Shown here piece by piece: positions 319-64,000 of a stretch of DNA of 64,000 nucleotides; the first letter of the stretch is position 1, and each line of letters begins with the position of its first letter. Location of the stretch: the NCBI GenBank assembly GCA_965649765.1, contig OZ287752.1:65348001-65412000 (forward strand), in the 5' to 3' direction. This DNA comes from Bispira polyomma (Eukaryota). Both the position numbers and the translations under genes were made by a program. The notes below the pieces were generated by a model that was not told the origin of the DNA, did no database searches, and worked only from the letters and a program-made list of their open reading frames with translations.

Positions 319-810
319 GTTCGGATAACCAAAAAGATTCTAACTTTCATGATGTGACCTTGGAATGATATTTTACATATGACATATATATCTCTGTTTT
401 GACAGATAAATAGGTTATAGCTTTAACAAGTGGTTTTCGTAGTATTCCTTAATAGTAATGGAGTAAGTTTGTGTCTCTTCATGCGTTAGAGAGTTGCTAA
501 ACCGAAATGTTTGATTGACCCAAAATGATTTGATGTACAAATTATTTTTTGAAATTTGAAGATTGATGTAACATTTTGGAGATCTGTTAAACAGAAATAT
601 TCAAAATGTTCGAATAAACAAAACGTTCGGATAACCGAAAATGATCAGATTTTTTAAAAGATTCAAACTTTTAAGGTAAGAGCTTGGAATGATATTTTAC
701 ATATAACAGTCAATATATCTCTCTTGACAGATAAATGGGTTATAGCTTTAATAACTGGATTGGCTTTCGTGGTATTCCTTACTAGTGTTGGAGTTAGTTT
801 GTGTCTCTTC
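319..810. repeat. Imperfect direct duplication (~160-190 bp; ~319-480 vs ~625-810)
   Basis: Shared gttcggataacc...ttggaatgatattttacatat...gacagataaat...ggttatagcttta...gtttgtgtctcttc. Confidence 0.75.
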
Positions 811-1105
811 AAATGTTACCACAAAAGACAACAAAATAGGAGGAAAACATCACCAATTTTCTTGGAAAATATGAGTTACGGAAGTCATGAAACTGATTAA
901 TAGGTATCTTCATATATATTTATTTGTTAAATACATTATAAAATGATATTTCTGAGTATAACAACGATACTCAACTTGTATATTTAAAAGCTTTTAAACA
1001 AACCACTTTTAGCATAATATTTAAACAGTCTCTTCTCAATCTTGTGAATTTAACAGTCTCTAATCACTTCTCCTGTGGATTGTTCATTTTTGTTTATTGT
1101 TTTTT

Positions 1106-2869
1106 CTACATTTTGTTTAAAAAGTCTCTGAGGTTTTGTACAAAAACATCTATTTCATCTTTTTGCACTACAAATCCTTTTCCTGGGAGTGGGTAAATCC
1201 CTCCTTTGAACATCTTCTCAAACCTCCTGAACGATATGTACGAATGGTTGGTATCTACACAAGCTTTAAGACCGTCATCAGCTATATCAACCCTAAGGTT
1301 CACACGACGGTCTTGTTTGGCTCTATTCACTGCTTGTACAAGCACATCCAAATTCCTGAGTATACCCTCGCAGTGTTCAGGGTACAGCCTTAGTCCACCG
1401 TCTCTGTACTCTGTCATGATCGTGTATTCACCATCGCCTGTGTCTTTTTTCATTGTGAAGTGATCATTGATGATTTCCACAAACGCATAACTGTAGCAAA
1501 AAAAAAAAAAAATATTTCCATGAATTAAGAGATTTTATCTTCCTACATGATTATGAATATACTCACACAAAAAAAATTATGAATTACTTATTTCATCATT
1601 AAAGAAAATTACACATAATTAAGATGTTAAATATACTCACTTTGTGGCTGCATTGTTGTTTGTTGCTCTTGTTGTTCTTGTACTTGTAGACATCTGTTTC
1701 TGTAGAGGTTTATTGACAACACTGCATGCTGGAGGTTGGATGGACTGAGCCATTGAGGCTAAAGCTTGATAGCCAGTTACCACGTTGGAGGGACCAGATT
1801 CGAGAATAATTTTAGGTTTTCGGGGTTTTGAGGGTTGTTTAGACTTTTTAGGATTTTGGGGGGGTTTAAGGGGTGTGTAGGGTTCCACCCACTCTAGGTC
1901 CGAATCCTCTTTAGCGTCTTCCTGCTCGCTGTGAACTTCATCACTCATGTCGTCATTGAACAAGGAACTGTAAAAAGAAAGATATAAATATTATAAATAT
2001 GTTAAATTACAGTACTAAGAACCTTTCAAAACAATCTAAACTATGTATCACCTATTAAAGTTTAGAATTTGTTTTCTAATTAGGCTATAATTCTAACAAA
2101 GACAGCTTCTTACTTTTCTAACGTTATAACACTAAATGCGCATTTTCCATCTGAATCAACAAATTAATTTAGTGATAAAGTTATTTTTCTTTAAATTTAT
2201 GTAAAAATTATTAAGTAATATATATTCCTAAAGTTTCCACAGCAAGAAGCTCAAAAACTCAAATTTAACTACAATTCTTTCACAGTTTAATTAGTGGGTT
2301 TCCAATCAAACTCACGGTGAAAATATTTATATGTTGTATTTTATAGTGTTGTTAGTAGTTATATTTACACATATTTCTACTAAATAACAAAATGGGTAAA
2401 ATGTTATTTACCTGTTTGGTTTCTTCGTCTTCCTAGTTAATAACTCTTTCTCTTCTGTTACTGCTTTTCTCTTCCTGAATAAATATATTTACAAATCTTG
2501 TTTAATTTTTAAAATATAATCGGTCTTGATTGTCTTTTATTCATATTAGTTTTTTCCATGACTCGATAAATAAAATCTTGAGACTATAAGAACCTTTTAT
2601 TCAAATTTACTTTTCCAAGATTCTTTATAAGAAGTTTGACTTCTATTACGAAAACAGAAAAAACAAAATAAACAAAAATCTTAAGTATTTATCAATTTGA
2701 TTGATGTAAATAAATTATAATTGTGTAGTATATAAATATATATTATAGTTATGTCGCGTTTTCATAAAGTTTCAAGTATTAAATTTCTAATTATAATATT
2801 ACAATAATTAATTTTATTTATTAAATAAATTTAAACAAAATAACTTTATCATACTTACATTGAAGCCAT
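1106..2869 (-). CDS. Four-exon gene, 261 aa (exons 2869-2859, 2474-2412, 1967-1641, 1490-1106); basic/acidic low-complexity N-terminus, putative PC4-like ssDNA-binding C-terminal domain
   Basis: All three introns are GT-AG (gtaagt, gtaaat, gtgagt donors; attcag, ttacag, ctacag acceptors), all phase 2. They join into one open frame MASMKRKAVTEEKELL...PNSSLFNDD...NAATNYAFVEII...FLNKM*, 786 nt in total. TATAAAAG lies upstream and AATAAA at 1098-1093 just after the stop. The PC4 resemblance (YISFRRFEK..GGIYPLPGKGFVVQKDEIDVFVQNL) is by eye only. Confidence 0.8.
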
Positions 2870-2959: not shown

Positions 2960-2967
2960 CTTTTATA
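2960..2967 (-). promoter_or_regulatory. Candidate TATA box for the four-exon gene, with CCAAT motifs at ~3008 and ~3047
   Basis: TATAAAAG on the minus strand ~90 nt upstream of the ATG at 2869. Confidence 0.4.
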
Positions 2968-3624
2968 AACTGCAACTTGTTAACAACCACAGCATTTGGA
3001 AATCCAACCAATGAAATAATTCACTCAGAATTAAGAACACCACCAACCAATAAAATAAAATGTTTATTCTGTAGTATGCTTCTACACCAATTTGTATAAT
3101 TATGTGTTAAATGTTTAATGTGTTTGTATTTATACAAAAAAAAAATCTAATCGTGTTTTCTAACATCTAAGATTTCTAAGTGTAGTTTTACTTAGAAAAC
3201 CAAACTTAAAAGTTAGTTATTAATAAAGATTTAAAGGGTAGTAGAACATCAAATAAATGTGTGCATAAACATACTATGTAAAGTTGTTTTAGTGTTTTAA
3301 GAGATCTTAACATATAATCTTGTAATATAAAGAAATTTTAACTGATCTTTGATTTTCCATCTGTTTTGAGATCTTTTTGTGTGTATTTCAACTAAATAAA
3401 CAGACCATTTATCAACCAACTAAAACAGTATATTGTAACTTTTACCCAGTAGAGTGGGTTATAGTTACCTTAAAGGATTTGCTTTTAGCTTTAAGTTTAA
3501 AAGGATTCCTATACACAAGAATTATACCCTTAAAAGATCTAAAAGGGAGGGGACAAAGGATTGTAACCAATTCACCCTGTAGGGGTTATTCAAAAGGATT
3601 GTAACCAATACACCCTTGATGGTG

Positions 3625-3772: not shown

Positions 3773-4096
3773 ACCTGGTGTTTATTTAGTACGTGATTCT
3801 GCTGTTAGGGTGTTTATTTTAGAGTGACGGCACTCGGGTGCTTGTTTGTACTCGTTCAACTTCTAAAACAAGCTTACACCTTTTGCAGACAAGGCCTCTT
3901 AGGGTCTGGTGTTTATTTTAGAGTGAAGCATACGATTCTACTCATGGGGGTGGTTTATAAGATCTTCGGGGGGGGCTCATCACGATTCTACTCATTGGGG
4001 TGGTTTATAAGATCTTCGGGGGGGCTTATCATGATCATGGGGGTGGCACAACTCCTCGGGGGGGTACCTCAAATCCTGCAATACGCTACTACTCCC

Positions 4097-4460
4097 TTGT
4101 TACACAGAAGTTAGCAGAATATAACTTACAGGCACAGGCAGTCTTTTCACAAGGTAAGGCTGTGCTCAGGCAGAAGTCTGGACGTTTTAACTGTACTGAT
4201 ATATCCACAAGTAATCTGAAATTAAGATGGCCCAACGAGGGATGTACTGGGGGTTCGGCAAAGAAATGACCCGCGTTCGACGACCTGTCACTGCCCCAAT
4301 GGGCTGCTGGGCTGCTGACAAATGCTCTCCAAGTAACGGATCCCGTTTTATCATGTGACATGATTCAGCAAGTGGTCCTCGCGCTCCGACACACCTCATC
4401 GCTACCTTGGGAGGTAGTCAGGACGGCATGGGCTCTAGTGTTACAAGACAAATTCATCCA
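4097..4460 (+). pseudogene. DIRS gag-like ORF fragment (5' part removed by the Maverick insertion)
   Basis: Translates LVTQKLAEY...QKSGRFN...RWPNEG...K*PAFDDLSLPQWAAG...SLPWEVVRTAWA, resembling invertebrate DIRS/Ngaro ORF1; one internal stop. Confidence 0.65.
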
Positions 4461-4554
4461 AGCAATTGGAAATGGGGCTTAACCCCAGAAAATAGGAAGG
4501 CGACCAGCTACCAGTAAACTTAACAGACGGACATGTAGTTTTCAGAAACTTAAA

Positions 4555-5337
4555 GTGAGAGACGTAGATTGCAAACTTGCAACTAATAGCATTGGTCAGA
4601 AATACACAAATAAATTTTCTAATAATGATTGCAATGAGCTAATGAGTAAAATAAGTTTGAGAAAAAAAGATAATGTTATTTTGAACCAAAAGGACAATTA
4701 TAAGATTTATCCTGTTGAAATCAGTTTAAGCAATGGTGTAACTGGATTTTCCAATATACCTCACTATGTCACAAAGAGTAACACGTTTACTTGGGGCGAT
4801 TCTAGTACTAACAAACCTCTCAGTATTGAACAGAAATACATGAATGAATTAAACCTGACAAATTATACTGATGGCCATGAAAACCATGGCAGAGGGAAAG
4901 GAAATATTTTGGACAAACGAATAGGGGATAGGGAAAAACATCCTGGAGTACGTGATTACAGTGACAATATGTGTGAGTATATACTTCGGGTTTGCCCGGA
5001 GTCGGATGGAAGCAAAGACAGGATTGCAGCCACAAATTGGTGGTATTATGTACACGAGTATGGAAGCAGTAGTCAGGTATTTCATACAAATCAGGAAAAT
5101 TCAAATATTTTGGTTTTCTATTGGCAAGGAAATGGAATTCGGGGACTACAGGGTCATTTTTATAAGTGTGGACCTCCACCCCCAGGTGAGATTGTTACTG
5201 AACATTCTGCCATCTTGTTTCTGACTCCAGTTTTTAAAGTACCCGGAAGGGAGTATTTAGTTAATAGTTATGAAATGCATAAAGCCAAAGAGGCTTGGTG
5301 CGATTATAACAAAGATTTAGAATGTAACAATAAGTAA
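4555..5337 (+). CDS. Uncharacterised 260-codon ORF between gag and RT of the DIRS element
   Basis: Open frame with a GTG start in the ORF track and no recognised domain. It is in the same orientation as the DIRS pol. Confidence 0.35.
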   Translation: MRDVDCKLATNSIGQKYTNKFSNNDCNELMSKISLRKKDNVILNQKDNYKIYPVEISLSNGVTGFSNIPHYVTKSNTFTWGDSSTNKPLSIEQKYMNELNLTNYTDGHENHGRGKGNILDKRIGDREKHPGVRDYSDNMCEYILRVCPESDGSKDRIAATNWWYYVHEYGSSSQVFHTNQENSNILVFYWQGNGIRGLQGHFYKCGPPPPGEIVTEHSAILFLTPVFKVPGREYLVNSYEMHKAKEAWCDYNKDLECNNK

Positions 5338-5374
5338 TACGAGTTATACTGATCATGTACTTAATGTAATTGAT

Positions 5375-6508
5375 GTGTTGTTATGTAAATGTGATGACGT
5401 CATACCCTCTCAGATAAAGAGAGATGTTGAAGGAACAGGTATAGTTACACCGTGCGACTTCTTCGATAACTTACCTACTACTATGGCAGATACTGGCCAA
5501 GTAGTCACTACTGTAGAAAAGGACATCAATTTACCAGATAAAAATACAGGGTTCTTAGCCTTATCTAACACTAAATTTGAATTTTGTGGACCCGACAGGA
5601 CTCCCATACACATTGAAACTGTCAAACAAATGACTTATTGGGCAAAAATTATTAGGGACCCAAATTGTCCTGACTACAGAGAGGCAAGGATCCCTCTGGT
5701 ATCAGGACTCAACATTCCTATTTGGGAAAGAATACTTAAAGATTGCCCAGATCAATTGCTCTTGCAATATCTTAAATTTGGCTTCCCTCTTTCTCTTCAG
5801 AATCCACAAACTTTGAGAAATCTTGAAACTACAAACCACCACTCTGCACTTCAGCATAAGGCTGCCATTACTCAATACTTTAACAAAGAAAAGAGTTGTG
5901 GGGCAATGTTAGGCCCTGTTACTGAGTTAATAGACAATGATCAATTTCACTGCTCACCCCTGCTAACTAGGCCCAAGGATACTGACAAGTGACTAGTTAA
6001 TCTAAATTTATCTTATCCAAAAGAAAACTCAGTAAATGACAATGTGAATAAAAACCTATTCGATGGTGTAAAATTTAGACTAAAATTTCCATCCATAGAT
6101 GACATAGTCGAACAAATTTGGAACACAGACGAACCAAAAATATTTAAACTTGACGTGGCCCACGCTTTTAGGAATCTTAGGGAGGACCCAGCCGATGCAA
6201 TAAAGTTAGACATTTGTTTTGAAGGCGGAAAATATGTAGATCCGGTGGTAGCCTTCGGCTGGGTCCACGGCTAGGCGGCCTTTCAGCGCTGCTCTGACGT
6301 GGTAGCACACTATATGGATAAGAAAGGACATAAGATATTCTGTTACATCGACGATTACGTGGGAATAGCCACTTCTACTGTGGCAGACACTGCTTTTAAC
6401 GAGTTACATAAACAAGTCACTGACCTGGGTTTGCCTCTTAATCCAGATAAGATAACCAAATGAAATTCTAGAATCACTTGTTTAGGAATCGATATCGACA
6501 TTGATAAA
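5375..6508 (+). pseudogene. DIRS reverse transcriptase (interrupted)
   Basis: LKFGFPL...NHHSALQH...SPLLTRPK*...LSYP..SVND...KLDVAHAFRNL...AFGWVHG*...FCYIDDYVG...LGIDID with in-frame stops. Confidence 0.9.
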
Positions 6509-7832
6509 TTGTATGTCAAATATGCCCTTAGGGAGTGGCCTAAAGGCAGATGTATGTGTCAAGCTTCTTGTGAACATGGCAATGGTATTGTTTTCAAATA
6601 TATTGAGATCCCATTGTAATTTTTTAGCCATATGTTTGATGGCAGACAAGTAATTGTTGACACTAAGGGGTGAAGCCCCTGTTTGAACTAGGTATTCTAA
6701 GAAAGCCACTAGTGAGTGTGTGGGTATCTGGTCAATGCCTGCATAACAGTTGAAGGAAATCAATGTCTTGAACTGGTTGTTATAAGTCATGCTAGTCTGT
6801 GGTCTAATTGAATGGTTTATCCTCTGCCATGCTGTGCTGGTGAAAGCTTGTGTCACTTGAGTGGCACCTGAAATTATATAGTTATATCTAAGTTAAAAAA
6901 CTGTATTGGTATATTTCTCCAAATACAGTTTTCATTAATGATGTCAACTTGTTCTCCCTTTGAAGGCTCTTCTGAGAATAACCTTGACAGCAAATCTGCA
7001 ATTACATTTTCTTTATCTTTTATGTGTTCTATGTTAATGGTTATATTGAAAATGGAGGAAATAAGCCATGTTCCGCAGGTAAAGTGCTAAGAATTCATCT
7101 TTAGTTTTGTCTGACCTCACTACCAGTACGACAGCCATATTGTCACATTTAACAGTTATTCTCCTATGTCTCCACTGCTCACCCCAGACCATAAGTGCTA
7201 ACAAGATATTTAATATTTCCACGTGAACTATAGTAAGTTCTTTACCGTATATGTTATAAAAGGGGGTAGCATAGACCTCATTTTTGAAAATGTCCCCTAA
7301 GCCCGTTAAGCAGGCATCTATGTAGACTTCGTTTTCTAAAGCTATATTGATAGGTTTAATGAATGTAATACCATTATATACAGAAAGAAATTTAGTGAAC
7401 CAAAGCAAATCAGCCTTCATCTCCTGTGATACTTTGAAACGTTTTGCTTGACTCTTTTCTCCAAAAGCTCTAAGTAATCGATTGACAAACATTCTAGCAC
7501 GTTTAACACATTTGTGTATATAAAGTAATTTTTCTAAAACTGATTGGAATTTTGTGCGAGAAATCCATTGCTTGTTAAGCACGTCAAGACAAGTTGACAG
7601 GTTTCTTTAATCTTTTCTTGTGTAATACTAATAATTCCTTTATCAATGTCGATATCGATTCCTAAACAAGTGATTCTAGAATTTGGTTTGGTTATCTTAT
7701 CTGGATTAAGAGGCAAACCCAGGTCAGTGACTAGTTTATGTAACTCGTTAGAAGCAGTGTCTGCCACAGTAGAAGTGGCTATTCCCACATAATCGTCGAT
7801 GTAACAGAATATTTTATGTCCTTTCTTATCCA
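6509..7832 (-). pseudogene. Inverted DIRS segment: RT C-terminus, RNase H and N-terminal part of the tyrosine recombinase
   Basis: Minus-strand ORFs 7534-7863 (YIDD...), 7034-7582 (RNase H) and 6482-6856 (integrase SAM-like N-domain, SVNNYLSAIK). The protein resumes on the plus strand at 7833. Confidence 0.9.
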
Positions 7833-8449
7833 CTCTCTCTCTTATATCTAAGGCTTGTGACATCTTCGATGATCCTCCACTTTATAGGGCCATTTTTTTG
7901 CTTGCTTTCTTTGCCTTTTTAAAGATGTCCAACATTGCCCCTCACTCAAGGGCCAAATTTGACCACACTAGGAATTTCCTGAGAAAAGATATCACTTTTG
8001 GCCACCCAGGGGCACACATCATTTTGAAATGGCCAAAAAACCTGTAGATTAGATCTCAAGTCCATATTATTTAAATGCCTTCACTAACAAATATTGTTCT
8101 TTGCCCGGTTACAGCGTTACAAAAATTACTTCACACCAGGCCACTCCCTGACCATTACCTACTTTTTGTTGGCAGTACCCAACCACACCATGCTATTGTA
8201 GACTCACACGTTAGGATAGCCCTTGCCAAGGTCTTAAATCACATAGGCATACCCCAAACTGGCCATACTTTCCACACATTCAGACGATCAGGAGCAACTT
8301 ATGCTTTTAACAATATTGTTTCTCTGCAAAACATTATGTCCCACGGATTGTGGAGATCTTCAGCACTATGGTCCTGTCTTCAAACAAATTCACAAGCTGC
8401 ATCTGCAGTCCCACTTACTTTTGCTGCTTCCATACCCCCTTTTTCTTAG
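7833..8449 (+). pseudogene. DIRS tyrosine recombinase catalytic domain (inactivated)
   Basis: LSLISKACD...RAIFLLAFFAFLKMSN...LCPVTAL...HTFRRSGAT...GLWRSSALWSCL. The first catalytic Arg appears as Lys, the nucleophile Tyr appears as Cys, and there are internal stops. Confidence 0.85.
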
Positions 8450-15914: not shown

Positions 15915-17573
15915 AACTGACTCTGCCCAGGCAGCTTTCACTTCCTTACAGCACTGCCTTGTTGATGTACAACACTGGATGGCAGCAAATAAACTCAAGC
16001 TGAACCCTGAGAAGACTGAGTTTATTTTGTTTGGCTCCAAGTAGCAATGGGATAAATTTTCCAGCTGTTTTCCACTTGACATTCTTGGTAGCAGGTTTTT
16101 TCCAGCTGACAAAGTACGAAACCTGGGTGTGGTGTTCGACTCTGAATTCTCCTTCTCTAACCATGTGGCATCGGTGTGTAGATCATGTTTTGTTGGCCTC
16201 CGTGATTTCAGGCGGATTCGACGCTATCTTTCCAAATTCACTGAAATTACTGTTGCCAATGCTTTGGTCAGCAGCAGGCTTGATTACTGCAATTCTCTGT
16301 TCCGTTCCTTATCTCGTAGTGATCTCAGACGCCTACAGAATATCCAATACTCATTGGCACGTATTGGCTCCAAGTAGCAACGGGAAAAATTTTCCAGCTG
16401 TTTCCCACTTGACATTCTTGGTAGCAGGTTTTTTCCAGCTGACAAAGTACGAAACCTGGGTGTGGTGTTCGACTCTGAATTCTCCTTCTCTAACCATGTG
16501 GCATCGGTGTGTAGATCATGTTTTGTTGGCCTCCGTGATTTCAGGCGGATTCGACGCTATCTTTCCAAATTCACTGAAATTACTGTTGCCAATGCTTTGG
16601 TCAGCAGCAGGCTTGATTACTGCAATTCTCTATTCCGTTCCTTATCTCGTAGTGATCTCAGACGCCTACAGAATATCCAATACTCATTGGCACGTATTGG
16701 CTCCAAGTAGCAACGGGAAAAATTTTCCAGCTGTTTTCCACTTGACATTCTTGGTAGCAGGTTTTTTCCAGCTGACAAAGTACGAAACCTGGGTGTGGTG
16801 TTCGACTCTGAATTCTCCTTCTCTAACCATGTGGCATCGGTGTGTAGATCATGTTTTGTTGGCCTCCGTGATTTCAGGCGGATTCGACGCTATCTTTCCA
16901 AATTCACTGCAATTACTGTTGCCAATGCTTTGGTCAGCAGCAGGCTTGATTACTGCAACTCTCTGTTCCGTTCCTTATCTCATAGTAATCTCAGACGCCT
17001 ACAGAATATCCAATACTCATTGGCACGTATTGTGACCAAAACTTCTAAATTTTCCCACATTACTCCTGTACTCAAGTCACTGCACTGGCTCCCAATAAAA
17101 TATTGTGTTGCTTTCAAAACAGCAACAATAATAAAAAAATTTCTAAATTCTGGATTACCCACTTATTTTAGCCCCCATCTATCCAAATATACATGCTTAG
17201 TCAGGACAAGGCGCAGTAACCTTGATAAATTATACCTTAACATTCCCACTTTCGACCCTCGCATCCACAAATCCAAAGTTCAGTTTAATCACTGCCTAGC
17301 TTATGATGGCCCCCTCATTTGGAACAGCCTACCTGATCATGTTCGCCTGGCTCAAATTTTCTCCTCTTTCAGGAGTAAGCTGAAGGCCTACCTTTTTTTG
17401 AACAGGCTTTTCCACCTTAGCCGTCGCAACCATTTACAGTAGTCTCCCTGGTTACGACTTCCATCTGTCCACTATTATTGATTTTTGATTAATGTTTTGG
17501 GTTTGTTGCGCCTTAGAATTTGTTGTACAAAGATTAAGCGCTATAAAAGTACGACTAGATTAGATTAGATTAG
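15915..17573 (+). mobile_element. L2/CR1-type LINE 3' fragment with (ATTAG)n tail
   Basis: WMAANKLKLNPEKTE...RNLGVVFDSE...ALVSSRLDYCNSL...HITPVLKSLHWLPI...WNSLP; tail tagattagattagattag at ~17556-17573. Confidence 0.9.
16031..17031. repeat. 333-bp tandem triplication inside the L2 fragment
   Basis: Near-identical units start at 16031, 16364 and 16697. Confidence 0.95.
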
Positions 17574-24087: not shown

Positions 24088-26238
24088 TTACCTATGTCTA
24101 CAGCATTTTCTCCTTTTACAGAGGTACACTCCAAAAATAATAGAGAATAATATAACAACACAGCTCACAAAGAATACATACCAATACGTCTTCAAAAATA
24201 ACACAATTTTACTATTTGTACCTGTGATGCAGAACAAGGTTTCACTGCAATATCCTGTATAATTTTTACACGGCTGTCCTGCCATAAGTTTTATGGCACT
24301 TCCATCTTTATTTTTTAGTCCTAGTAAAGAAGCAGGGATACAAGGAGACTTGTAAGCGTCATTACTGTTCTTACTACTGGTACAGCATACTTCACAAAAT
24401 GAATCCTTATGCTTACTATCAGTACAAGAGCATGCCTCTAACTCAAGCAGGCTACATACTGTCTTCAAGCATAGACCATTTTGGCATAGCATTTGTCCCC
24501 CAAAGCATGGAGTGTTGTCTTTGACTTTAGCCGGAGCGGGACAAACTGCAGTGATTCCATCACAATAGGAGGACTCTGAACACTCAGTTTTCTCTTTGCA
24601 AATGATGGTAGTGTCTGCCAGAATCTGGCAGTCAGTATTGCAGCATTTTGATGCCCTTGGACTACATACACCTTTTGTTCTATCTATCTTACAACCAGTA
24701 TTTTGCCCTGGCGTGGCTGGTAAGCAACATTTGTCAAATGTCTCGCATTGTTCTTCGAAGCCACAGTCGCATTCTTCTCCAGGTTCCACTTTCTTGTTTC
24801 CACAAATTGATGCCAAGACATCCTTTAAGCAAAGCTGGCCTTTGCTAGTTATTACTAGAGCCATATCATGAATGCTACAGGGTGAGAATATTCTGTGATT
24901 GGGCTTATTAGCATCATTGCTATAAGGATGCATTAAGAAATTACCTACGGCTCCACCTGGAGCACAGACTAAATCTATGTCTGGATCATGGGAAGCACCG
25001 AATGCATGACCAATTTCATGGACAACAGTTAATGAAGTTACTCTCCGTGGTATCATTACACCATAGTTCATATTGCTAACAAGTAGTGTATTAAAACTAT
25101 ACAAACTGCCATGATGGGATAATTGTCTTTGACAAATACCTCCAGGATAACCATACAGATTAGGAGATGCAATCCACGACAAACCTATTACTCCACCATC
25201 ATAATCTCTATGGGTGAATAGCAGCGATAAACAAACATCACTGTGATCATACTTGGAAAATTTATCCAAAACTTTATCAACGTCTGCGTCCACTGTATTA
25301 AAATTATAATTAGCAGAATTTGCACTGTCATAAATAACTATTTCTACCATTGACAATCCTATTTCTTCACCAGAGCCATTTCTATCAAAGTCAGTGCTCT
25401 TGAATATAGAATCTGCTTCAGTGATGTGAAACAAGATCTCTGCTATTGTCAAATCTACATTTCCTCGACCTATTTCTACAAAAAATGTATGGTCAACAAC
25501 AACTTTTATAGCACAATATCTAAGTATTTGATTGGTTGATGAAAATTCAGCTTTTAGATGAATATTTTCTGTGCTAAAACTGTTCCTTGGAGTCGCAGCT
25601 TTTTTGTGCTTGATGATATTATGTTTATGAAGTTTATCAAGTTCTGCACTATTGTGTGTTTGTTGAAATTGGTTCTTGCGATGAAGATCATTTAAATAAT
25701 ACAGGGATTGTTGTTCCCAAAAGTGAATATCACTTGACTTGTATATAACCATTGGTTTTCTCAGATGTCCTTGTGGAAAATACTTTTTAGTTGTTTCTGT
25801 ATAGAATGTTTCATTTTCAGTCCTAATAAGTCCACTGAAAATACCATTTGCAAGATTTCCATGAGCAAAAGATGCTGTGCCTTCTATGTGTCCAACATAA
25901 TACTTCGATACATTAAATGTGTACTTGTGAGATCCATTGAGGCCAATCTCAGTGACATGCAGATTTGATGCATGTAACAAAGGAGAAGGTTGTCCTTCTC
26001 CCCTCTTACGCCCAGAAATACTGGAAATAGGATTCAAATGTAAAGTAAAATTTCTACCAAAGCCTTGTAACGTTACAATTGTAGCCGCTTTACTGTAACT
26101 TAAAACTCCAAGCTGTGTTTCCTCAAAACAACTAATATACAGATTTAATGGTTTACATTTTTTGTGTTCACTATTATCTGTGGACTCAATGCAATGTAGA
26201 TGAAATAACATGAATCGTAATATATGTGCAAGTAACAT
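24088..26238 (-). CDS. ADAM10/ADAM17-family (kuzbanian-like) metalloprotease, single exon, 716 aa
   Basis: Signal peptide, prodomain, zinc motif HEIGHAFGASHD, Met-turn (NFLMHP), disintegrin CGNKKVEPGEECDCG, Cys-rich domain, TM helix YWYVFFVSCVVILFSIIFGVYL, 10-aa basic tail; uninterrupted ORF. Confidence 0.95.
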   Translation of the reverse strand: MLLAHILRFMLFHLHCIESTDNSEHKKCKPLNLYISCFEETQLGVLSYSKAATIVTLQGFGRNFTLHLNPISSISGRKRGEGQPSPLLHASNLHVTEIGLNGSHKYTFNVSKYYVGHIEGTASFAHGNLANGIFSGLIRTENETFYTETTKKYFPQGHLRKPMVIYKSSDIHFWEQQSLYYLNDLHRKNQFQQTHNSAELDKLHKHNIIKHKKAATPRNSFSTENIHLKAEFSSTNQILRYCAIKVVVDHTFFVEIGRGNVDLTIAEILFHITEADSIFKSTDFDRNGSGEEIGLSMVEIVIYDSANSANYNFNTVDADVDKVLDKFSKYDHSDVCLSLLFTHRDYDGGVIGLSWIASPNLYGYPGGICQRQLSHHGSLYSFNTLLVSNMNYGVMIPRRVTSLTVVHEIGHAFGASHDPDIDLVCAPGGAVGNFLMHPYSNDANKPNHRIFSPCSIHDMALVITSKGQLCLKDVLASICGNKKVEPGEECDCGFEEQCETFDKCCLPATPGQNTGCKIDRTKGVCSPRASKCCNTDCQILADTTIICKEKTECSESSYCDGITAVCPAPAKVKDNTPCFGGQMLCQNGLCLKTVCSLLELEACSCTDSKHKDSFCEVCCTSSKNSNDAYKSPCIPASLLGLKNKDGSAIKLMAGQPCKNYTGYCSETLFCITGTNSKIVLFLKTYWYVFFVSCVVILFSIIFGVYLCKRRKCCRHR

Positions 26239-41666: not shown

Positions 41667-44600
41667 TCCCAAACCTAATGTTTGTCATGTATATTATATA
41701 TTCCTTTTGAAACCATTTGAAATGGAACCTTCAATCAAATCTGAAGATCCCAATATATAAAACTTAAATAACTTGTACTATACTGCATATAATCACACCA
41801 AATTAATTTTGGACCAACTAAAGACCAAACAGTGTATATATACCAAATTTAAGAGCACAACTCTTTACAGATTCAGAGATTACCCTGTTGACACGTTGTA
41901 ACCATGCATAACCAAGGTTCTTCAACTATTTCCTTTCTCCAGGAAAGCATGATTATGCCAATAAGCATTGGCATAATCATGCAAAAAGCATCCACTAGGG
42001 AAGGGTGACTAAAGAGGGGGTAGGCCAGTATGAAAAGGTAGGTTTTAAGATGGCTTCTTTAACCCAGTGATTTTATCCTATGATCTGAAAGTCTGTAGGA
42101 GTAGTATGTGGAAGTCTTAAACAGTAAATAACTGAAGTGTACGGCATCTAAACTTTGCTGTACCCCCTAAACTTCTCCCCCTTGTTGTTTGAAACTTATT
42201 CCTGGAATCTGTAAAGGAAACCAAAACTGAAGTACTATAATCCACCAGCCTACGGAAAGTAGAGTTGTACTAAGTTGTAGCGTCAAATAATTTCACATAA
42301 TTTACCCCCATTAGTACATTAAAATTAAATCTTTCACTCGAACTTGTAACTTTTAAATTTAAAAGTGAAAGTGAGTTTGTTATGGTATATAATATAAAAC
42401 AAGAGAAAACATTAGCTTTAGTTAAAGCATTCACAGTAGAACTTCTATTGTCTAAATATTTGATTTGATGAACTAAATTTTACTTTAGCAACATTGTAAT
42501 TTTCTTACGTTCTGCAAAAAAATAATTCTTCTTTTTTTTTTATTATTCTATAATCGAAACAGATTACCTGGATCAATCTCCCCTAGTGTTCCGATAATAG
42601 ATTATACTGTATAAGTTCTGCATAAATTAAACCTTTATTTTTACATTAGACACATTCACTATTATACAATCTGTTGGTCTGAAGACTATGAGCTATAAAG
42701 TTGTGAGGGACTCCATATGAAGCCATCACCATGGACACCACCTTCCCACAGCCCGGCCTTGGTACCTCTGAAGAAAGAGTATGTGAAAACATATATATAT
42801 ATAATTGAAGCATTTACAGAGCACCAAATTGATGAGAACATCATCCAAGGCGCTGATATCGATAAAGGGAAAGTCCAGGGTCAAGTAAAATGTTGTTACA
42901 AACAAGAGGAGAATGGCCTGGCGGCCATATCATGTTAATGCCACTACAAAGCAAAATTCAAAGTAAAATCTGAAACATATGTATAAACAACCGAATCGCC
43001 TTAAAACATGTCTTGATAATTTATTTTTCACATAAGTTTGCTTTAAAACCTGATAAAAACAATTTTTTATATATTTTGGTAGCTCACAAAAGTTGGTTTG
43101 TTTACCTACAAAATTATCGGGTTTATTGACAGCTCTAGAAACGACCAAACCATAATTTTTTTAAAGTTACAAAAGAATATTGTATAGTAAGCAAACTTAA
43201 TGCAGGAGTTTACAATGTTTTGAGATGTATGACAACTGTGAGATTAGCCTATCAATATTTTAGGCTGCATATAAAGCCATTCTTACCTGAGTGGCTCATT
43301 ACTTGCATAATTCATGTCAAACCCATTAGGAGGCCCTCCATTATCAGTGGAAAAGACAATGACAGAATTCTCTAACATGCCTTTGTTGTGTAAGGCTTTG
43401 GTGATGTTGCCTACTGCACTGTCCAGGCAAGATACCATAGCTAGAATGGATAGTATAGGAATATTGTATAGTAAGCAAACTTAATGCAGGAGTTTACAAT
43501 GTTTTGAGATGTATGACAACTGTCCAGACTCCAGACAAGATACAATGGTTACAAATATTAACTGGTAATCTTAAACTAAATGAATGATACAAACTCTATT
43601 ATCCAAACTTCTCTAATTTCTAAAATATTTGTTCTTCAGGAAAGTTTTTTCTTGTTTATATTTTCACAATTCATGCTTCTATAGTTTCAAAAAAATATAT
43701 TACACTTCCATACATTTAAATCTCTATCAGAGATTACCTATTTTCATAACCAATCTCTTTTAACAGGAGGAGTTGGGAAGTGCCAAAAATTGGCCAGAAT
43801 TTTAACACAGTCAAACTCAGATCAACTTTGATGGATGCTTGTTGGGTTTAGTATTTGCACGAATAAGCATTCTGATAAACAATTTGGGTGGTGGATACAA
43901 AAGTTTTGACAAAAAGAAAACATTTCAAAACCAATGCTAATCACAAACTAAACTGAATTAAGGAGGGTTTAATTTTATAATATTAGAACTAATTTTGATC
44001 CATACCTGCAAACATCCTTCTCTTTTTATTCTGTATGTATGAGAATTTCTCATAGTATTCATAAGGAGCCTCCAGGGGTTGCCAGGAATTCGAGCTGTGA
44101 ACAGCTTGGAATGGTAGATACAGGAACAGAGGCTGTTCAAAATACAGCCAAAACCACTATTATCCGAACTCTGAATATCTCTGCTATCTGATAATTTCAA
44201 CCATATAAATTCATTTTCACTATACCAAATCAATGTTACCCAATTGTTTCATACTGATGCCCCTTGTACTTTTATTAACCAAATATAAAAACACACAGAC
44301 AAAAACTAAAACTAGAAAATAGTTTTGATAACAAAATCGAAGCGTCCCTATAGTTAAATTAATAATGAAATTGTTTAGTGTACAAGGTTTGACATTGTTT
44401 AAAAGCTGACATATAAGCAGAATCAGCACTTTTGGTAAAATATAACCTCGAAATCGCTCTATCTAGCACCATTTCCGAGATAACAGACGTTTTCTAAAAA
44501 GAAGCAGAAATTTAAGATGGTTGCCCAAATCAAAAATTACTTCAAAAGTTTACATATAAGGAAAATCAGCCCTGGGGGTAGAAAATGAGCTTGAAATCGC

Positions 44601-47241
44601 TCTATCTAGCACCGTTTCTGAGATAAAGGACATTTCCGAAAAAGACGCAGAAATTCAAGATGGCCGCCAAAATTGAACATTTTTATAAAAGTATAAATAT
44701 AAGCAAAAACAACCCTAAGGGTCAAAAATGAGCTCGAAAACGCTCTATCTAGCGCCATTTTCGAGATAACAGATATTTTCGAAAAATATGCAGAAATTCA
44801 AGGTGGCCACAAAAATTGCGATTTTTTGAAGTTTACACAAAAGAAGAAATCAGCTCAGTGAGTTGAAAATGAGCTTGAAATTGAAATTGCTCTATCTAGC
44901 ACCATTTCCGAGATTAAGGACATTTTCGAAAAAGACGCAGAAATTCAAGATGGCCGCAAAAATCGAACATTTTTTTAAAGTTTACAGATAAGCGCAATCA
45001 ACCCTGTGGATTGAAAATGAGCTCGAAATCGCTCTATCTAGCACCGTTTCCGAGATAACGGACATTTTCGAAAAAGTCCCAGAAATTCAAGATGGCCACC
45101 AAAATCGAACATTTTTTCAAAAGTTTACATATAAGCAAAATCAACCTTATGGGTTGAAAATGAGCTCGAAATCGCTCTATCTAGCCCCGTTTCCGAGATA
45201 ACAGACATTTTCGAAAAAGTTGCAGAAATTCAAGATAGCCGCCAAAATTGAAATTTTTTTTGAAAGTTTACATATAAGCAAAATCAACCCTGTGGGTTGA
45301 AAATGAGCTCGAAATCGCTCTATCTAGCACCGTTTTCGAGATAATGGACCTTTAAAAAAAAACCTTAATTCTTAAAATTTTTTGGATGGGGTAAAAAATA
45401 AATAAAAATTCAGGCTATTCTTTAAAAGTTACGCACTGCATGTACTGGTCTAAAATTAAAAACAAAAAAAATCCTCACACGCTCAAAAAAGCACCCATCA
45501 ACACATTTTTTTCCCCATTTTGTATGATTGATAGACCCTGTCAATCAGTCAATTATCACCAGATTGATCTAAAAATATACGGACATCTATGTTTTGGTAT
45601 TTGCAATGTGCATGCTAAATTTCATTGAACTATGACAAGTACTTCAAAAGAAAAGTTGATAAAAGTGCAAGACAGAGCAAAATAGAGCAAAATACTCATT
45701 TGAAGTACTCAGTACTCATTGAGTACTGGACTTAGAACTGTGAGATTTTTACATCATACATAAAATCAAAAAGTAGATGAATAACTTATACCAAGAAAAA
45801 GCCAAAATCCCAATAGTTTCCGAGATAGCAAAAAAGTACCGATTTTCGCATTTCAATAACAAGAGGAGAATGGCCTGGCGGCCATATCATGATAATGCCA
45901 CTACAAAGCAAGCTACGGATGAGTCCGAAAATAGCGAACCAGAAACTAGTTAACAGTTTGAAATGGATTTCGAGAGCCATCTACTGTGGGTACCTGGTAA
46001 GTTAAACCAAAGGGAAAAATTCAAATCTGAGACATTTGTGTATAAACAACCGAATCACATAAAAAAGGTTTTGATAATTTTTTTTTTTGATAATTTATTT
46101 TTTACACAAGAGAATGACCAGTTTGCTATGTGCAAGTGTGAGGCTCAATTTCTGGGCTGCAAAACTGCGACTAAATAGAAAGATGATTTTCTGATATAGG
46201 TGTTGTTACACGAAACAAATATTTTAAGTGAATTATTCTTATAGATCAAACCATTTGGTCACAGGTCCAGTAAACCACCGCTGATACTATATCATACTTT
46301 ATGAATAAACCTCCAACAACCTACCACATTAGAAAAGACATAATTAATAGCTATTAAAAAATAATAACAAAAATGTTGAATATAAAACCTCCAAAATGTT
46401 TTATTTTACAATTTTATGTACAAAGTATTGTATAGCTGTTCTATATTATTTTCACACACAAACAGAACAAAAGTTGTCTTCCATGTACGTAGTATGTATA
46501 AAGTTTCATTAGAAATCCCCCCCCCCCCCGCCTCTCAAAGTTTTCTGGCTTTTGTACAAGTCCCCCACCCCCGTCCAAGTTTTCTGGCTTTTGTACTGGT
46601 ACAGATTGCCCTTTCCATTTCCTTTCCAAGGTTCTTCCGTGGAGAGTTGTATTACTGTATACTGCTTGTAAAAATAGGATTCATGCCATTGTTGCATCAT
46701 TTTTAAAGTCATATTTTTGTAGGGTGAGTAAAGGTTTGTATTGATGTTTTAAAGTGTAAAAAAATAAAAGTATAGTGATTTAAGGTAAATAGACAATTTA
46801 GTTTAAGTTCAGTTTAATAGATATTTATGTTGTGTTCAAATTAATGAAAAGAACCAACAAAGAAAAAAATAAACCAACTATGACCTGGACACACATTGTG
46901 ACCATCTGTGTATGTATATGAGAAGGGAGGTGTTTGTCTTTGCCTTACTTTTACAGCAGTACACTGATTGTCAAAATTATGTTTTGTTATAAGTGCTTCA
47001 ATTTTTAATGCCAGTTTTTATAGTAAAGGTAGAAGTAAATATTTGTGTTGTTGTTTTAAATGTACACTAATAAAATGATTGCTTTAAGCTCAAAGCATTT
47101 TTAATATATAAATATATATATGATTAGATTGTATGAAATTCATAAAAAATTATCAAAACAGTAAAAAAAATTAAAGCAATTATAATCAAGCCAAATATTG
47201 TGACCAGCAGTATATGTAGAACTGACAAGTGTAAACCCCAG

Positions 47242-56300: not shown

Positions 56301-59300
56301 TATGAAAATGTGTGAAAATTCATACGTCTGTATATATATATGCAGACTGCTTTTAAATTAATTATGATTATTAATTGACAAACCTTGTCAAGCAAAGCTA
56401 GGTGATTAAAATTAAACAAAAAATTACAGACAACAATATTTATCATGTACAGTAGACTCTGTATAACTAGAACGTCCATTATCCACAGGATTTGGTTCTA
56501 GTTATAGCTAACTTCTAACTATACCTATGAAAATACAGCATTTCCTGGTGTTGAAACCTCAAAACCAGTTCCAGTTATACCTAAATTTGACTTGAAATGG
56601 TTCTATCTATACAGAGTCTACTTTATAACAAAATTGACTTTAAACTTAAGTACAATGTCAAAATTTGATACTGTTTGCAGCTTTATTATTTTCAAATAAG
56701 GTTGCTTTAAACGAGAGGCCATATTTAAATAATTAATGTGAACTTTCAATCAAATAATGCGAACACTTTATGGTATACTGTTTATTTTATTTTGTAGATA
56801 ATAATTTCATTCAATTTAAACACATCTTGAAACTTAGTATTTTTTAAGATAATATACGTCACATGGTTGACCATACATTAATAAAAGGTTAAATTTTCAG
56901 TGAACTTCATTTGCACTGCAACAATTCAAACTATCGAATTTCTGACATTTTTACCTCTACCAAGAGGGTTATGTTTTGCCTGTGTGCAACTGTGCATTGG
57001 TTAGTTTATCACTAAGACTATTCACAGCGATTGAATTCTTCCAGGCAAGTGGACTAAATTGGAAGAAATGGAAGAAACTGAAAGTGCTGAGGAATATTAC
57101 CATGAAAAATCAGTTAATTTGAGGAAATATGAAGAAAAACATTCTTTAGGTAACTAACATGTATAGTGATGGATAAATGTACACAAAAACAACTGATCTG
57201 CTGATTTAAATGATATTTTTGGCACTCAAGGGCATTGTCGGAAGTGTGCTCTCTGAGTGCATTTTTAGTTGTTTATGGTATAGCATAAGGAGAACCCTAC
57301 CTTTCCTACTATATGTGACTTGTATCCAAGTTTATTGAGGTATTGAGGTAAGACAGTTTCATTGAGTGGCAATCCATATTTTGCCGAACCAACAATCACA
57401 CCAGATTGAAGCCCTGGACATTTAAAATAAATAGCAATGGTTAAGTATTCACATTAATGTTGATGTTGGTTTCTGATTATTGCTATCAGCAGAAACAAAA
57501 GAGTAGCCCAGGGGGCCACTTTGGCAGATACTGCAGGGGATTGTTTGATAGATGTTTGTATTAGATGAAAGTGTTGCTTGATAAAAATGTGAGGTATGGT
57601 GATTTTGTAGGGGTAGGTTGTAGTTATTATGTTTGTTATTGTTTGTCGTCAAAATCGTAAAATTTGTGAAAAGTTGTCATAGATCCTAAACAAGTTACCT
57701 GTGGGCCAAAAATGAGGTCGAAATGGCTCCATCTCGCACTGTTTACGAGATAGCGGACGTTTCCGGAAAAGACTCAGAAATTCAAGATGATTGTAAAATT
57801 TGTAAAAAGTTGTCATTGACACTGAATAAGAAAATCTGTGGGCCAAAAATTAGGTTGAAATCGCTCTATCTCACACCATTTACAAGATAGCTGACATTTC
57901 TGGAAAAGAGGCACAAATTCAATATGGCCACCAAAATTGTAAAATTTGTGGAAAGTTGTCATAGCCCATAAACAGGATACCGTGTGGGCCAAAAATGAGG
58001 TCGAAATCGCTTCACCTCGCACTGTTTACGAGATGGCGGACATTTCCGGAAAAGACGGGGCAATTCAAGATGGTTGCCAAAATTGTAAAATTTGTAAAAA
58101 GTTGTCATTGACACTGAATAAGTAAACCTGTGGGCTGAAAATGAGGTCAAGATCGCCCTATCTCACACCATTTACGAGATAGCCAACATTTTTGGAAAAG
58201 AGGCACAAATTCAATATGGCCACCAAAATTGTAAAATTTGTGGAAAGTTGTCATAGCCCATAAACAAGATACCGTGTGGGCCAAAAATGAGGTCGAAATC
58301 GCTTCACCTCGCACTGTTTATGAGATGGCGGACATTTCCGGAAAAGATGAGACAATTCAAGATGGCCACCAAAATCGTAAAAAACTTGTCATAAACACTG
58401 AACAAGATACCTTGTGGGTCAAACATGAGGTCCAACTCGCTCTATCTTGCACTGTTTATGAGATAGCGTTACAGGCAGATTGTGTAACTTGTGCAACTTT
58501 CCAATTCCCCCCTCCACCCTCTATAGCACAAGTATCAACACACATGCAGCTTACGTACAAACCAAAGACAAGTGGGATGAAGAGGTAGCTGGAGAGGAGG
58601 ATTCACATAAGTGCCAAATAAGTTAAGAAATTTTAAGTCCATGATCACAAATTTCGAAACACCAGCAACTGCACACTAAATAAAGTAACCCTACCAAGTT
58701 TCAGGCTGAAAATCACTTTTATTCTTGAAAACTTTGCTGTCCTCAATGGTTGCTAGGCAATACAGCCTCCAGATATCTATCATATGATTGTAAAACAGCA
58801 TAGCAAAAGTGACGCGTCTGTCGTAGAAAAAACACGAACTATGACAACAGAATGCCTAAGAAAAAATAAAATTAGCTATCATTGAAAACATTTTAAAAGT
58901 GGAGACATTAACAAACTGCAATCTGGAAGTCTTAAAGTTTCATGCTGAAATTTGAATTATGCAGTACCTGAAAAGAAGAAAATAAAGAAGTCAATGAAAT
59001 CAGTTTATAAGTTTTATCGCAAAGTTTCCAACTAATCATCCGCTAATCTGATAACAAACTTAATGTAATACACTAATATTAATCACCAAATTTTAGCCTT
59101 AATAATTCAAATAAAAATATCACCAGTTGTCTTGTGTATCACATCAATTGATCAATTGAAGAAAATGCTTATATTAATAATTCTACTATTTATCCTTAAA
59201 GCAAACTTCTGGACCCACCATATTCTCCAAAGACACTGAAGCTTAAACTTGTGCCTACTTCCTCAAGTGCTATGTGGAAGTTCTTTGATAGATGAACTTC

Positions 59301-63039: not shown

Positions 63040-64000
63040 AACTAGACCTAGCGCATCGGAGAACCGGTGCATATTTGTATCCACCAAAAAGACAAAGCAC
63101 CGGCGGTAGCAAGCACTCTAGCTAGCACCCAAGCTAGAAGCCTATGATTTCCTATAAGGCATTTTTGCTTAGGCTTTATGCTAAATAATAATTCTGTGAT
63201 AGGCACTTTTAAGTTTGGTGTACCCGTATGACCTTGCACAAGGGATCCAAGGTTAAATATGACCAAAAGATTAGCAGCCCATGATTTCCTGTAGGTTGGT
63301 TTGACATTCCCAATCTCTAGGACCAATAATAAGCGAGTTATAAGCACTTTTAAATTTGGCTACCCTTATTTGACCTTCAAGGAGGGGCCCAGGGTCAAAC
63401 CTGACCACATCAGAAGACTCCAAGCCCATGATTTCCTATAGGTTGGTTTTACATCCCAAAACTGTAGAACCAATAATAAGTGAGTTATAAGCACTTTTAA
63501 GTTTGGCTACCCTAATCTGATCTTGATGGAGGGGCCCAAGGTCAAATCTGACCACATCAGAAGATTTTCAGCCCATGATTACCTATAAGTTGGTTTCACA
63601 TTGCAAACCTGTAGGACCAATAATAAGCGAGCTATAAGCACTTTAAGTTTGGCTATCCTCGTTTGACCTTGAAGGAGGGGCCCAAGGTCAAACCTGACCA
63701 CGTCAGAAGATTCTCAGCCCACAATTTCCTATAGGTTGGCTTGACATGCCAAACCTCTAGGACCAATAATAAGGGAGATATAAGCACTTTTGAAGTTCGC
63801 TATATGGGGTACTTTGGCACTCCGTGGATGACCTTGAATGAAGAGCTTCAGGGTCATATGTCTGCATGCTTGTAGAAGACATATATATCTATTACACATA
63901 TCACCTATGAATAGATTCAACCTTCTAGTTACGAGAACCAGCCAGTAAAAAAAGGTAGATAATTTTCAAAGAAATGCCCATGGCAGCCATCTTGTTTTTC
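63040..64000. repeat. HINE-like element end (aactag + hairpin) followed by a ~147-bp satellite, ~4.5 copies
   Basis: gcc(c/t)a(t/c)(g/a)att(t/a)cct recurs at ~63140, 63276, 63424, 63571 and 63717; hairpin gcatcgg-agaa-ccggtgc at ~63053-63070. Confidence 0.8.

Follow-up and report, generated by a model that had tools for sequence, protein, structure and literature searches.

The question raised by this locus is whether a gene split over four exons lies hidden at the end of a Maverick element and, if so, what its product could do for that element. We addressed it in a window of 64,000 nt (the whole stretch analysed: Bispira polyomma, assembly GCA_965649765.1, contig OZ287752.1, positions 65,348,001 to 65,412,000), in sequence to the left of it and among related copies in the same genome.

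Exon-intron structure of the spliced gene

A first-pass annotation, made from the letters alone, had joined a tiny start exon, a short second exon and two longer open frames into one coding sequence, and this four-exon model held up. On the minus strand the exons (11+63+327+385 nt) add up to 786 nt and encode 261 aa with a single, terminal stop, and the three introns between them are all GT-AG and of phase 2:

2960..2969, minus strand: TATA-like box TTTATAAAAG, ~95 nt upstream of the ATG
2859..2869, minus strand: coding part of exon 1, a start micro-exon of 11 nt with a GTAAGT donor after it
2475..2858, minus strand: intron 1, 384 nt, phase 2
2412..2474, minus strand: exon 2, 63 nt, basic (KRK ... 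RKTKKP)
1968..2411, minus strand: intron 2, 444 nt, phase 2
1641..1967, minus strand: exon 3, 327 nt, with an acidic block, a Pro/Lys block, a conserved helix and a low-complexity tract
1730..1774, minus strand: amphipathic helix motif within exon 3, protein residues 90-104
1491..1640, minus strand: intron 3, 150 nt, phase 2
1106..1490, minus strand: exon 4, 385 nt, encoding a 127-aa tandem PC4-like (Pur-alpha type I) domain with the predicted architecture of four strands plus helix, twice

The KRK, acidic and Pro/Lys tracts that had been described for the N-terminus are indeed present, and the basic tract of exon 2 is what we take to be a nuclear-localisation signal, a likely but putative reading.

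The splice sites are kept among copies and across subfamilies. All 6 splice dinucleotides are retained in 11/11 aligned copies (9 close copies and 2 from the 72% subfamily, in which exon 3 is longer by 201 nt, in frame), and the start micro-exon with its donor recurs in subfamilies down to 36-44% identity. At the last exon, a YAG acceptor stands one base ahead of the reading frame in each of the 20 best and each of the 20 divergent copies, against a background of ~2% of intron positions. With hand-written motif patterns, 17 of the 20 divergent copies could be modelled (2 lack the 5' part and 1 missed the pattern); the spliced frame is free of stops in 11 of these, contains one stop in 1 and is shifted in 5, with exon lengths varying among them. 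These observations bear on the simplest alternative, namely that the splice reading is due to chance and that a 115-aa ORF in the last exon is the sole real unit. The frames upstream of the last exon are open, so that a separate reading is possible in principle; however, conservation begins at the acceptor, 12 codons ahead of the internal ATG, whose Met is kept in only 13/20 rows, the spliced frame stays free of stops in those 11 copies although exon lengths change, and in one clade exons 1 and 2 are contiguous in genomic DNA. We give this alternative next to no credence, and the comparison among copies argues well for a real gene with a conserved spliced structure.

The contiguity of the first two exons belongs to a wider pattern of intron variation. 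The start motif was located in 18 divergent copies, and 6 of these lack intron 1 exactly, the genomic start motif continuing directly into exon-2 sequence at the exact predicted joint. Intron 2 is missing in the most divergent clade (4 of the 17 modelled copies), where the sequences are too distant for the joint to be called exact. In a tree of 32 rows (L052, L069 and L079 excluded; outgroup rows long), each absence state corresponds to one well-supported clade (100/99 and 100/100). With the base of this tree open, intron loss is favoured over gain by parsimony.

The two flanking signals of the gene fared differently. The TATA-like box is kept in 10/11 aligned copies, and the clade without intron 1 has a comparable box at a comparable distance. 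The AATAAA at position 1098, 8 nt past the stop, had been counted as a signal of the gene, but it occurs in 0/11 other copies and is private to the window copy; other AATAAA sites lie at most about 260 nt from the stop in all 11. Three sequencing read runs covered introns like exons and had no joint at the predicted sites; they behave as DNA and have no bearing on expression.

The element carrying the gene

The gene sits at the right end of a Maverick that is full-length yet broken, as the first-pass annotation had supposed when it spoke of a putative Maverick end. Comparison with nine close copies delimits a shared unit reaching from 18.6 kb left of the window, where the left terminal repeat starts (G000:C5:65329379), to position 4093. 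Both termini read AGTAGT, and the terminal repeats of ~282 nt differ by 6 mismatches and 1 gap. Inverted repeats ending in (AGT)2 and a 6-bp target duplication are described as hallmarks of Mavericks (PMC8097293, excerpt). The right end comprises:

3810..4093, no strand assigned: right terminal inverted repeat, with the AGTAGT terminus at 4093
4094..4099, plus strand: target-site duplication CCCTTG, 6 bp, with its second copy before the left terminus
731..900, plus strand: last exon of a convergent neighbour gene in the same element, encoding a transmembrane helix and a short tail

Among the coding regions, a protein-primed polymerase B (pPolB) was recognised above the Pfam cut-off (DNA_pol_B_2, E 1.3e-6), its frame in the window copy being split over several frames and interrupted by a LINE. 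The integrase (rve, E 0.037) and the protease (Peptidase_C5, E 0.047) of the window copy gave weak Pfam matches below cut-off, and the packaging ATPase (Pox_A32, E 7.1e-5) came from a related copy; with the gene order conserved, we accepted this set of integrase, protease and ATPase as present. A capsid-like ORF had no Pfam match; its Atlas neighbours (0.91-0.94) include DJR-like and capsid clusters, with a recognition value below the threshold of the tool. The spliced gene itself lies just inside the right terminal repeat, pointing inwards behind its TATA box, co-oriented with pPolB in a fixed gene order.

Several further features of the element were recorded. The convergent neighbour, with upstream exons at L022:8889-9605, has the look of a spliced gene for a type I membrane protein: it shows a signal peptide, a Cys-flanked exon with a conserved donor at its end, repeats rich in Ser/Thr and, in its last exon, a tail motif SPIFLEN-x-x-Y also seen in 3 other subfamilies; since it looks spliced, the Maverick seems to hold more than one spliced gene. 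A small ORF (L022:6976-7389, plus strand) with a signal peptide and a Cys-rich start is conserved across subfamilies and has no Pfam match. Near the left end lies a BIR (inhibitor of apoptosis) gene (L021:1929-2378, plus strand, E 1.6e-15), which in copy L089 reads in frame into a second PC4-like ORF; IAP genes have been noted in adintoviruses (PMC8502044, excerpt). The LINE in the polymerase region of the window copy (L022:1187-4381) measures 3.2 kb, encodes an endonuclease and a reverse transcriptase, and is missing in all 8 close copies for which the sequence extends far enough. A NADAR-like domain (E 5e-6, below cut-off) forms the end of the C-terminal polymerase frame (L021:8357-9997, minus strand).

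The Maverick is inserted in a degraded tyrosine-recombinase retroelement (window 4094-8449 and L021:754-1380) with reverse transcriptase, RNase H-like and recombinase fragments and an internal inversion (6315-6508/7639-7832). Elsewhere the window contains three near-identical 333-nt tandem units (16031-17035, 98-99%), with matches next to a single other Maverick copy as well; a 716-aa ADAM10-like metalloprotease gene without introns, possibly a retrocopy (24088-26238, minus strand); and arrays of 137-147-nt tandem repeats of one family (44392-45409, 57669-58468 and 63264-63850).

Copies in the genome, selection and age

The last exon has at least 140 matches in the 1.04-Gb genome, at 30-100% identity. 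Setting aside 11 second pieces that adjoin a listed match leaves 129 non-redundant matches; 1 of 103 and 7 of 150 rows were likewise dropped before the counts. Homologues co-occur with the genes of the element, as the annotation had proposed checking: a capsid-like match is listed within 25 kb of 85/129 matches, compared with 0.5% by chance, and for 81 of those 85 it lies downstream on the other strand at a median of 13 kb. The second PC4-like ORF is found within 35 kb of 104/129. We also looked at ten divergent matches for which no capsid match is listed: at 8 of them pPolB is present with the gene order unchanged, and the remaining 2 are accompanied by the same small neighbours.

Position and orientation of the gene are constant across subfamilies down to 31% identity, and between subfamilies the synonymous sites are saturated or nearly so. 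Among 20 pairs chosen by hand from 190, dN/dS of the last exon was 0.07-0.15 for 9 pairs between subfamilies, with 3 more saturated, and 0-0.62 for the 8 pairs within subfamilies, values which indicate that the gene is under purifying selection. An open spliced frame is retained in 3/9 close copies and broken in the other 6. Purifying selection together with broken close copies implies that selection acted while the element was active and that copies decay after insertion; the gene of the window copy is intact because its insertion is young. The earlier suggestion of a young element thus stands for the insertion, whereas the gene is old within its family and the element copy is defective.

The same data speak to the possibility that the gene is host cargo recently captured by the element, or a domesticated gene retained for a role in the host. 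Nematode Mavericks have been described as having intron-bearing cargo close to a terminal repeat (bioRxiv 10.1101/2022.07.12.499685, excerpt), and for 19/129 matches, one of which was inspected, neither marker is listed nearby. However, recent capture fits poorly with the synonymous saturation and with the constant position and orientation, 6/9 close copies are broken, and the last-exon domain is homologous both to viral MOSUB and to a paralogue in the element itself. No ordinary host gene was found among the inspected copies. We consider this possibility very improbable; domestication, which the annotation had offered beside youth, does not agree with 140 matches, almost all of which have a Maverick around them, and with many broken copies.

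Predicted fold of the last-exon domain

The C-terminal part of the protein had been likened to a tandem pair of PC4-like motifs, and modelling and structural search agree with this reading. Modelled from 20 aligned copies, the last exon reached pLDDT 90 and pTM 0.82 and is predicted to form two units, each with four strands and one helix (a single-sequence fold, at pLDDT 48, was not used), and the two motifs cited in the annotation fall on strands 3-4 of each repeat. The top structural match is Drosophila Pur-alpha repeats I-II (Z 12.0, rmsd 3.0, 118/127 residues aligned), followed by two cyanobacterial proteins, Whirly and MRP proteins (Z 6.5-8.3). PC4 homologues match the C-terminal half (Z 4.4-5.4, rmsd 1.6-2.5), human PC4 itself with Z 5.3 and rmsd 1.8 over 61. 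Foldseek against the PDB yielded nothing at E<=0.001, human PURA repeats I-II occupying ranks 2-5. In a library of viral structures, the single match at E<=0.001 was a protein named 'MOSUB' from a Branchiostoma lancelet adintovirus (E 6.9e-5, TM 0.78), and two more adintovirus proteins came at ranks 27 and 29, the former also annotated as MOSUB.

Sequence searches with the domain returned no match in the protein database (at near and at longer lengths), in Pfam or in viral contigs; the PDB gave 4 matches by sequence, all at chance level, and the best Atlas match (0.84) is unnamed. Pfam PC4 matched 0/20 members of the spliced gene at E<=10. A profile search, by comparison, found 15 proteins among 1.84 billion representatives, of which 5 carry Pfam PC4 (PF02229) at E<=0.0042, 2 of them above cut-off, and one matches human PC4 at E 3e-9. 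We regarded two of the 15 hits as spurious, namely the long repeat proteins P0003 and P0011. Because the five PC4 proteins came from our own profile, their comparison with it is partly circular, and the Pfam and human PC4 matches are the independent links. The last exon is thus predicted, on the strength of the model, to fold as a tandem PC4/Pur-alpha domain.

The putative nucleic-acid-binding surface

Proteins of the PC4-like fold family bind ssDNA and destabilise duplexes, with binding surfaces that vary widely among the nucleic-acid-binding members, type I domains included (PMC7549692, excerpt). In PC4 itself, loss of F77 and W89 abolishes ssDNA binding (PMC4350104, excerpt). Mapping by sequence alignment rather than superposition, PC4 residues R86, K101 and G102 correspond to R222, K238 and G239, kept in 20/20, 14/20 and 20/20 rows, and F77 and W89 correspond to D213 and E225; the W89-equivalent column holds no Phe, Tyr or Trp in any of the 20 rows. 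The net charge of the domain is +1 to -3, and its invariant basic and aromatic residues are R34, R88, K95, Y36 and F90 (domain numbering). Since the F77 and W89 equivalents are non-aromatic and the charge is near neutral, binding of ssDNA in the canonical PC4 mode is doubtful for this domain.

These features would suit a repurposed fold that no longer binds nucleic acid and serves as a protein-interaction module modulating host nuclear complexes. The lost F77/W89 equivalents and the neutral charge are as expected for such a module, as is the lack of a sequence-level PC4 match in all 20 members; on the other hand, the five invariant residues remain, and PC4-like proteins with widely differing surfaces still bind nucleic acid (PMC7549692, excerpt). 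On balance we think such a loss of binding unlikely.

The N-terminal region and its conserved helix

The low-complexity N-terminus spans 115-230 aa and is Gln- or Ala-rich in some clades. Exon 3, which was compared in 9 copies, encodes 90-200 aa and is Gln-, Ala- or Thr/Asn-rich by clade; its acidic block, its Pro/Lys block and a 15-residue helix motif are constant. The helix motif occurs once in 25 of the 28 loci scanned, with a pattern written after the sequences had been seen, and L94, I101 and P104 are invariant in 18 aligned rows.

The spacing of its residues recalls the Sin3-interaction domain of Tet1, for which residues A893-I894-x-A896-L897-x-x-L900 are reported (PMC6168491, excerpt). 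Set against this pattern, the helix has the small residue, the hydrophobic residue, Leu and Met/Ile each in 18/18 rows; its second long residue is Met or Ile, not Leu as in Tet1, and Ala stands at the position of A896 in only 8/18 rows. We read the helix as being of LxxL type and in the register of the Tet1 domain, a resemblance of pattern only. In a complex prediction made without alignments, the first PAH domain of Sin3 (PAH1) and a 32-residue stretch with the motif scored 0.32, against a mark of 0.34 and controls of 0.00-0.03, a score that we weigh neither for nor against binding; for PAH1 we substituted the domain of another animal, which agreed with the host sequence at 98% of 50 compared residues. 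The host genome also holds, separate from its Sin3 gene on C3, a single-exon open frame of 291 aa that encodes two PAH domains (G000:C2:14760688-14761122; L082:880-1755).

A second, intronless paralogue

The opposite end of the element holds a second tandem-PC4-like ORF, intronless and situated after the BIR gene, at a distance of 17.6-17.1 kb to the left of the window (L021:2394-2924, plus strand). Homologues occur at L062:1712-2227 and in L086-L097, and the genome holds at least 150 matches. The proteins measure 162-197 aa and end in a conserved H-x-N-Q-E-D...C-P-x-C tail, a Cys/His tail shared with the PC4-positive database proteins. Pfam PC4 is found in 10/12 members at E<=1 (best 3.2e-7), all 6 PDB sequence matches of the profile are MoSub1 or PC4, none of them significant, and the profile matches that of the spliced domain with a probability of 88%. 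By these matches the intronless paralogue is closer to PC4 than the spliced gene is, and it would be the likelier counterpart of the annotated MOSUB. The W89-equivalent aromatic is missing here too in most rows.

Function of the spliced gene

In the explanation that we favour, and on which we are almost evenly divided, the product of the spliced gene is an early nuclear regulator of the Maverick. Host polymerase II and the spliceosome would make the mRNA, and the basic N-terminus would direct the protein into the nucleus. There, a single-chain pseudo-dimer may bind melted or single-stranded nucleic acid at the element termini or promoters, through a surface that appears remodelled relative to that of PC4. 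The disordered region and the conserved amphipathic helix could recruit a host cofactor, with Sin3/HDAC as the candidate, and such recruitment would tune transcription of the element, leaving the plainer intronless paralogue as the probable replication SSB. Adenoviruses likewise have spliced, inward-pointing early genes at their termini. In favour of a regulator are the long low-complexity N-terminus holding a Tet1-like helix pattern and the presence of a more PC4-like paralogue (Pfam PC4 in 10/12 members versus 0/20 for the spliced gene). Against it, the positions equivalent to F77 and W89 are not aromatic, the domain is close to neutral in charge, the PDB search with Foldseek gave nothing at E<=0.001, and short amphipathic helices suit many partners; the paralogue too is mostly without the W89-equivalent aromatic, so the proposed division of labour is not clean.

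It is possible, though we would not expect it, that the spliced gene is itself a replication accessory SSB that melts the terminal origin or coats the displaced strand in protein-primed synthesis, its N-terminus serving only import, cooperativity or polymerase contact. The fold family, with its ssDNA binding and duplex destabilisation (PMC7549692, excerpt), and the co-orientation with pPolB in a fixed gene order would both fit. Protein-primed replicons need SSBs, PRD1 has two, and a disordered tail drives filament formation in its P12 (PMC11886824, excerpt); a PC4 homologue of phage T5 is tied to replication by its PDB title. The domain, however, has no stacking aromatics and a neutral to slightly negative net charge, the element already has a paralogue closer to PC4 and MoSub1, and the conserved motifs of the long disordered region would need an extra explanation. 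As PRD1 has two SSBs, two paralogues need not differ in kind, and as PC4-type proteins can do both jobs, regulator and SSB may coexist.

Going further, animal Mavericks may carry an ancient pair of tandem-PC4 genes at their opposite ends, of which the spliced one would be an immediate-early regulator that docks on melted element DNA and recruits Sin3/HDAC, as a latency/activation switch for polintoviruses. In sub-lineages, cDNA made by host retroelements would have removed its introns precisely, recording germline expression. As a whole we hold this scenario to be rather improbable.

Whichever reading applies, the gene touches on two open questions about Mavericks, namely how displaced single strands are handled and how transcription is controlled while the element is integrated. 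Two PC4-fold paralogues with different tails allow a direct comparison of binding and regulation, and the exact intron presence/absence variants form a small natural data set on intron turnover, here in a DNA element without a reverse transcriptase of its own.

Comparison with known systems

We found no description of the spliced gene in the literature on polintons and adintoviruses that was covered (subscription journals, Repbase and some supplements lay outside this coverage), and a term search of bioRxiv 10.1101/2024.03.25.586562, PMC11296320, PMC11131425 and bioRxiv 10.64898/2026.06.19.733378 gave no mention of PC4. The label MOSUB comes from Supplementary Fig. S2 of Starrett et al. 2021 (PMC8502044), on one map of which it adjoins the terminal repeat; MOSUB and SSDBP are labelled on maps and undiscussed in the accessible main text, which gave 0 matches for PC4, Sub1, ssDNA and 'splic'. 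As MOSUB has been annotated in adintoviruses, the class of PC4-like Maverick genes is already known; what appears to be new, within the literature searched, is a second paralogue that is spliced, varies in its introns and carries a conserved helix. Intact vertebrate Mavericks are reported to be without introns and core genes are described as intronless (PMC8097293, excerpt), and introners have been reported in dinoflagellate elements (PMC11957031, excerpt). Because elements are mostly annotated by ORF scans, a conserved spliced gene with a first exon of 8-11 nt would be invisible, as the first-pass annotation had remarked.

The closest known system is adintovirus MOSUB (A0A5H3CIS2 and A0A5H3CT48), the best structural match among viral models and from the same kind of element. 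The MOSUB models have 197-203 aa. The spliced gene stands apart by its three introns and long disordered N-terminus and by the lack of a Cys/His tail; the intronless paralogue, which has that tail, resembles MoSub1/PC4 more than the spliced gene does. With Pur-alpha repeats I-II and the type I domains of Whirly and MRP1/2 (PMC7549692, excerpt), the spliced gene is predicted to have in common two units of four strands plus helix per chain; it differs from Pur-alpha in having 8% identity, no third repeat and no Pfam match. The C-terminal repeat superposes on human PC4/SUB1, MoSub1 and the phage T5 homologue (PF02229) with rmsd 1.6-2.4 over 61-65 residues, the equivalents of R86 and G102 are invariant and profile relatives carry PF02229; those proteins are one-repeat homodimers, while the spliced gene encodes a fused pair in which the F77/W89 equivalents are non-aromatic. 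The cargo genes wasp and krma of nematode Mavericks (bioRxiv 10.1101/2022.07.12.499685, excerpt) are likewise spliced genes in a terminal region of elements whose core genes are intronless, but they are described as host-derived and exchangeable, whereas the spliced PC4-like gene is a fixed, long-selected part of its family with a virus-type homologue. Finally, the Sin3-interaction domains of Tet1 and SAP25 (PMC6168491, excerpt) are short amphipathic helices in which small and long hydrophobic residues are spaced as in the conserved helix, a likeness of pattern only.
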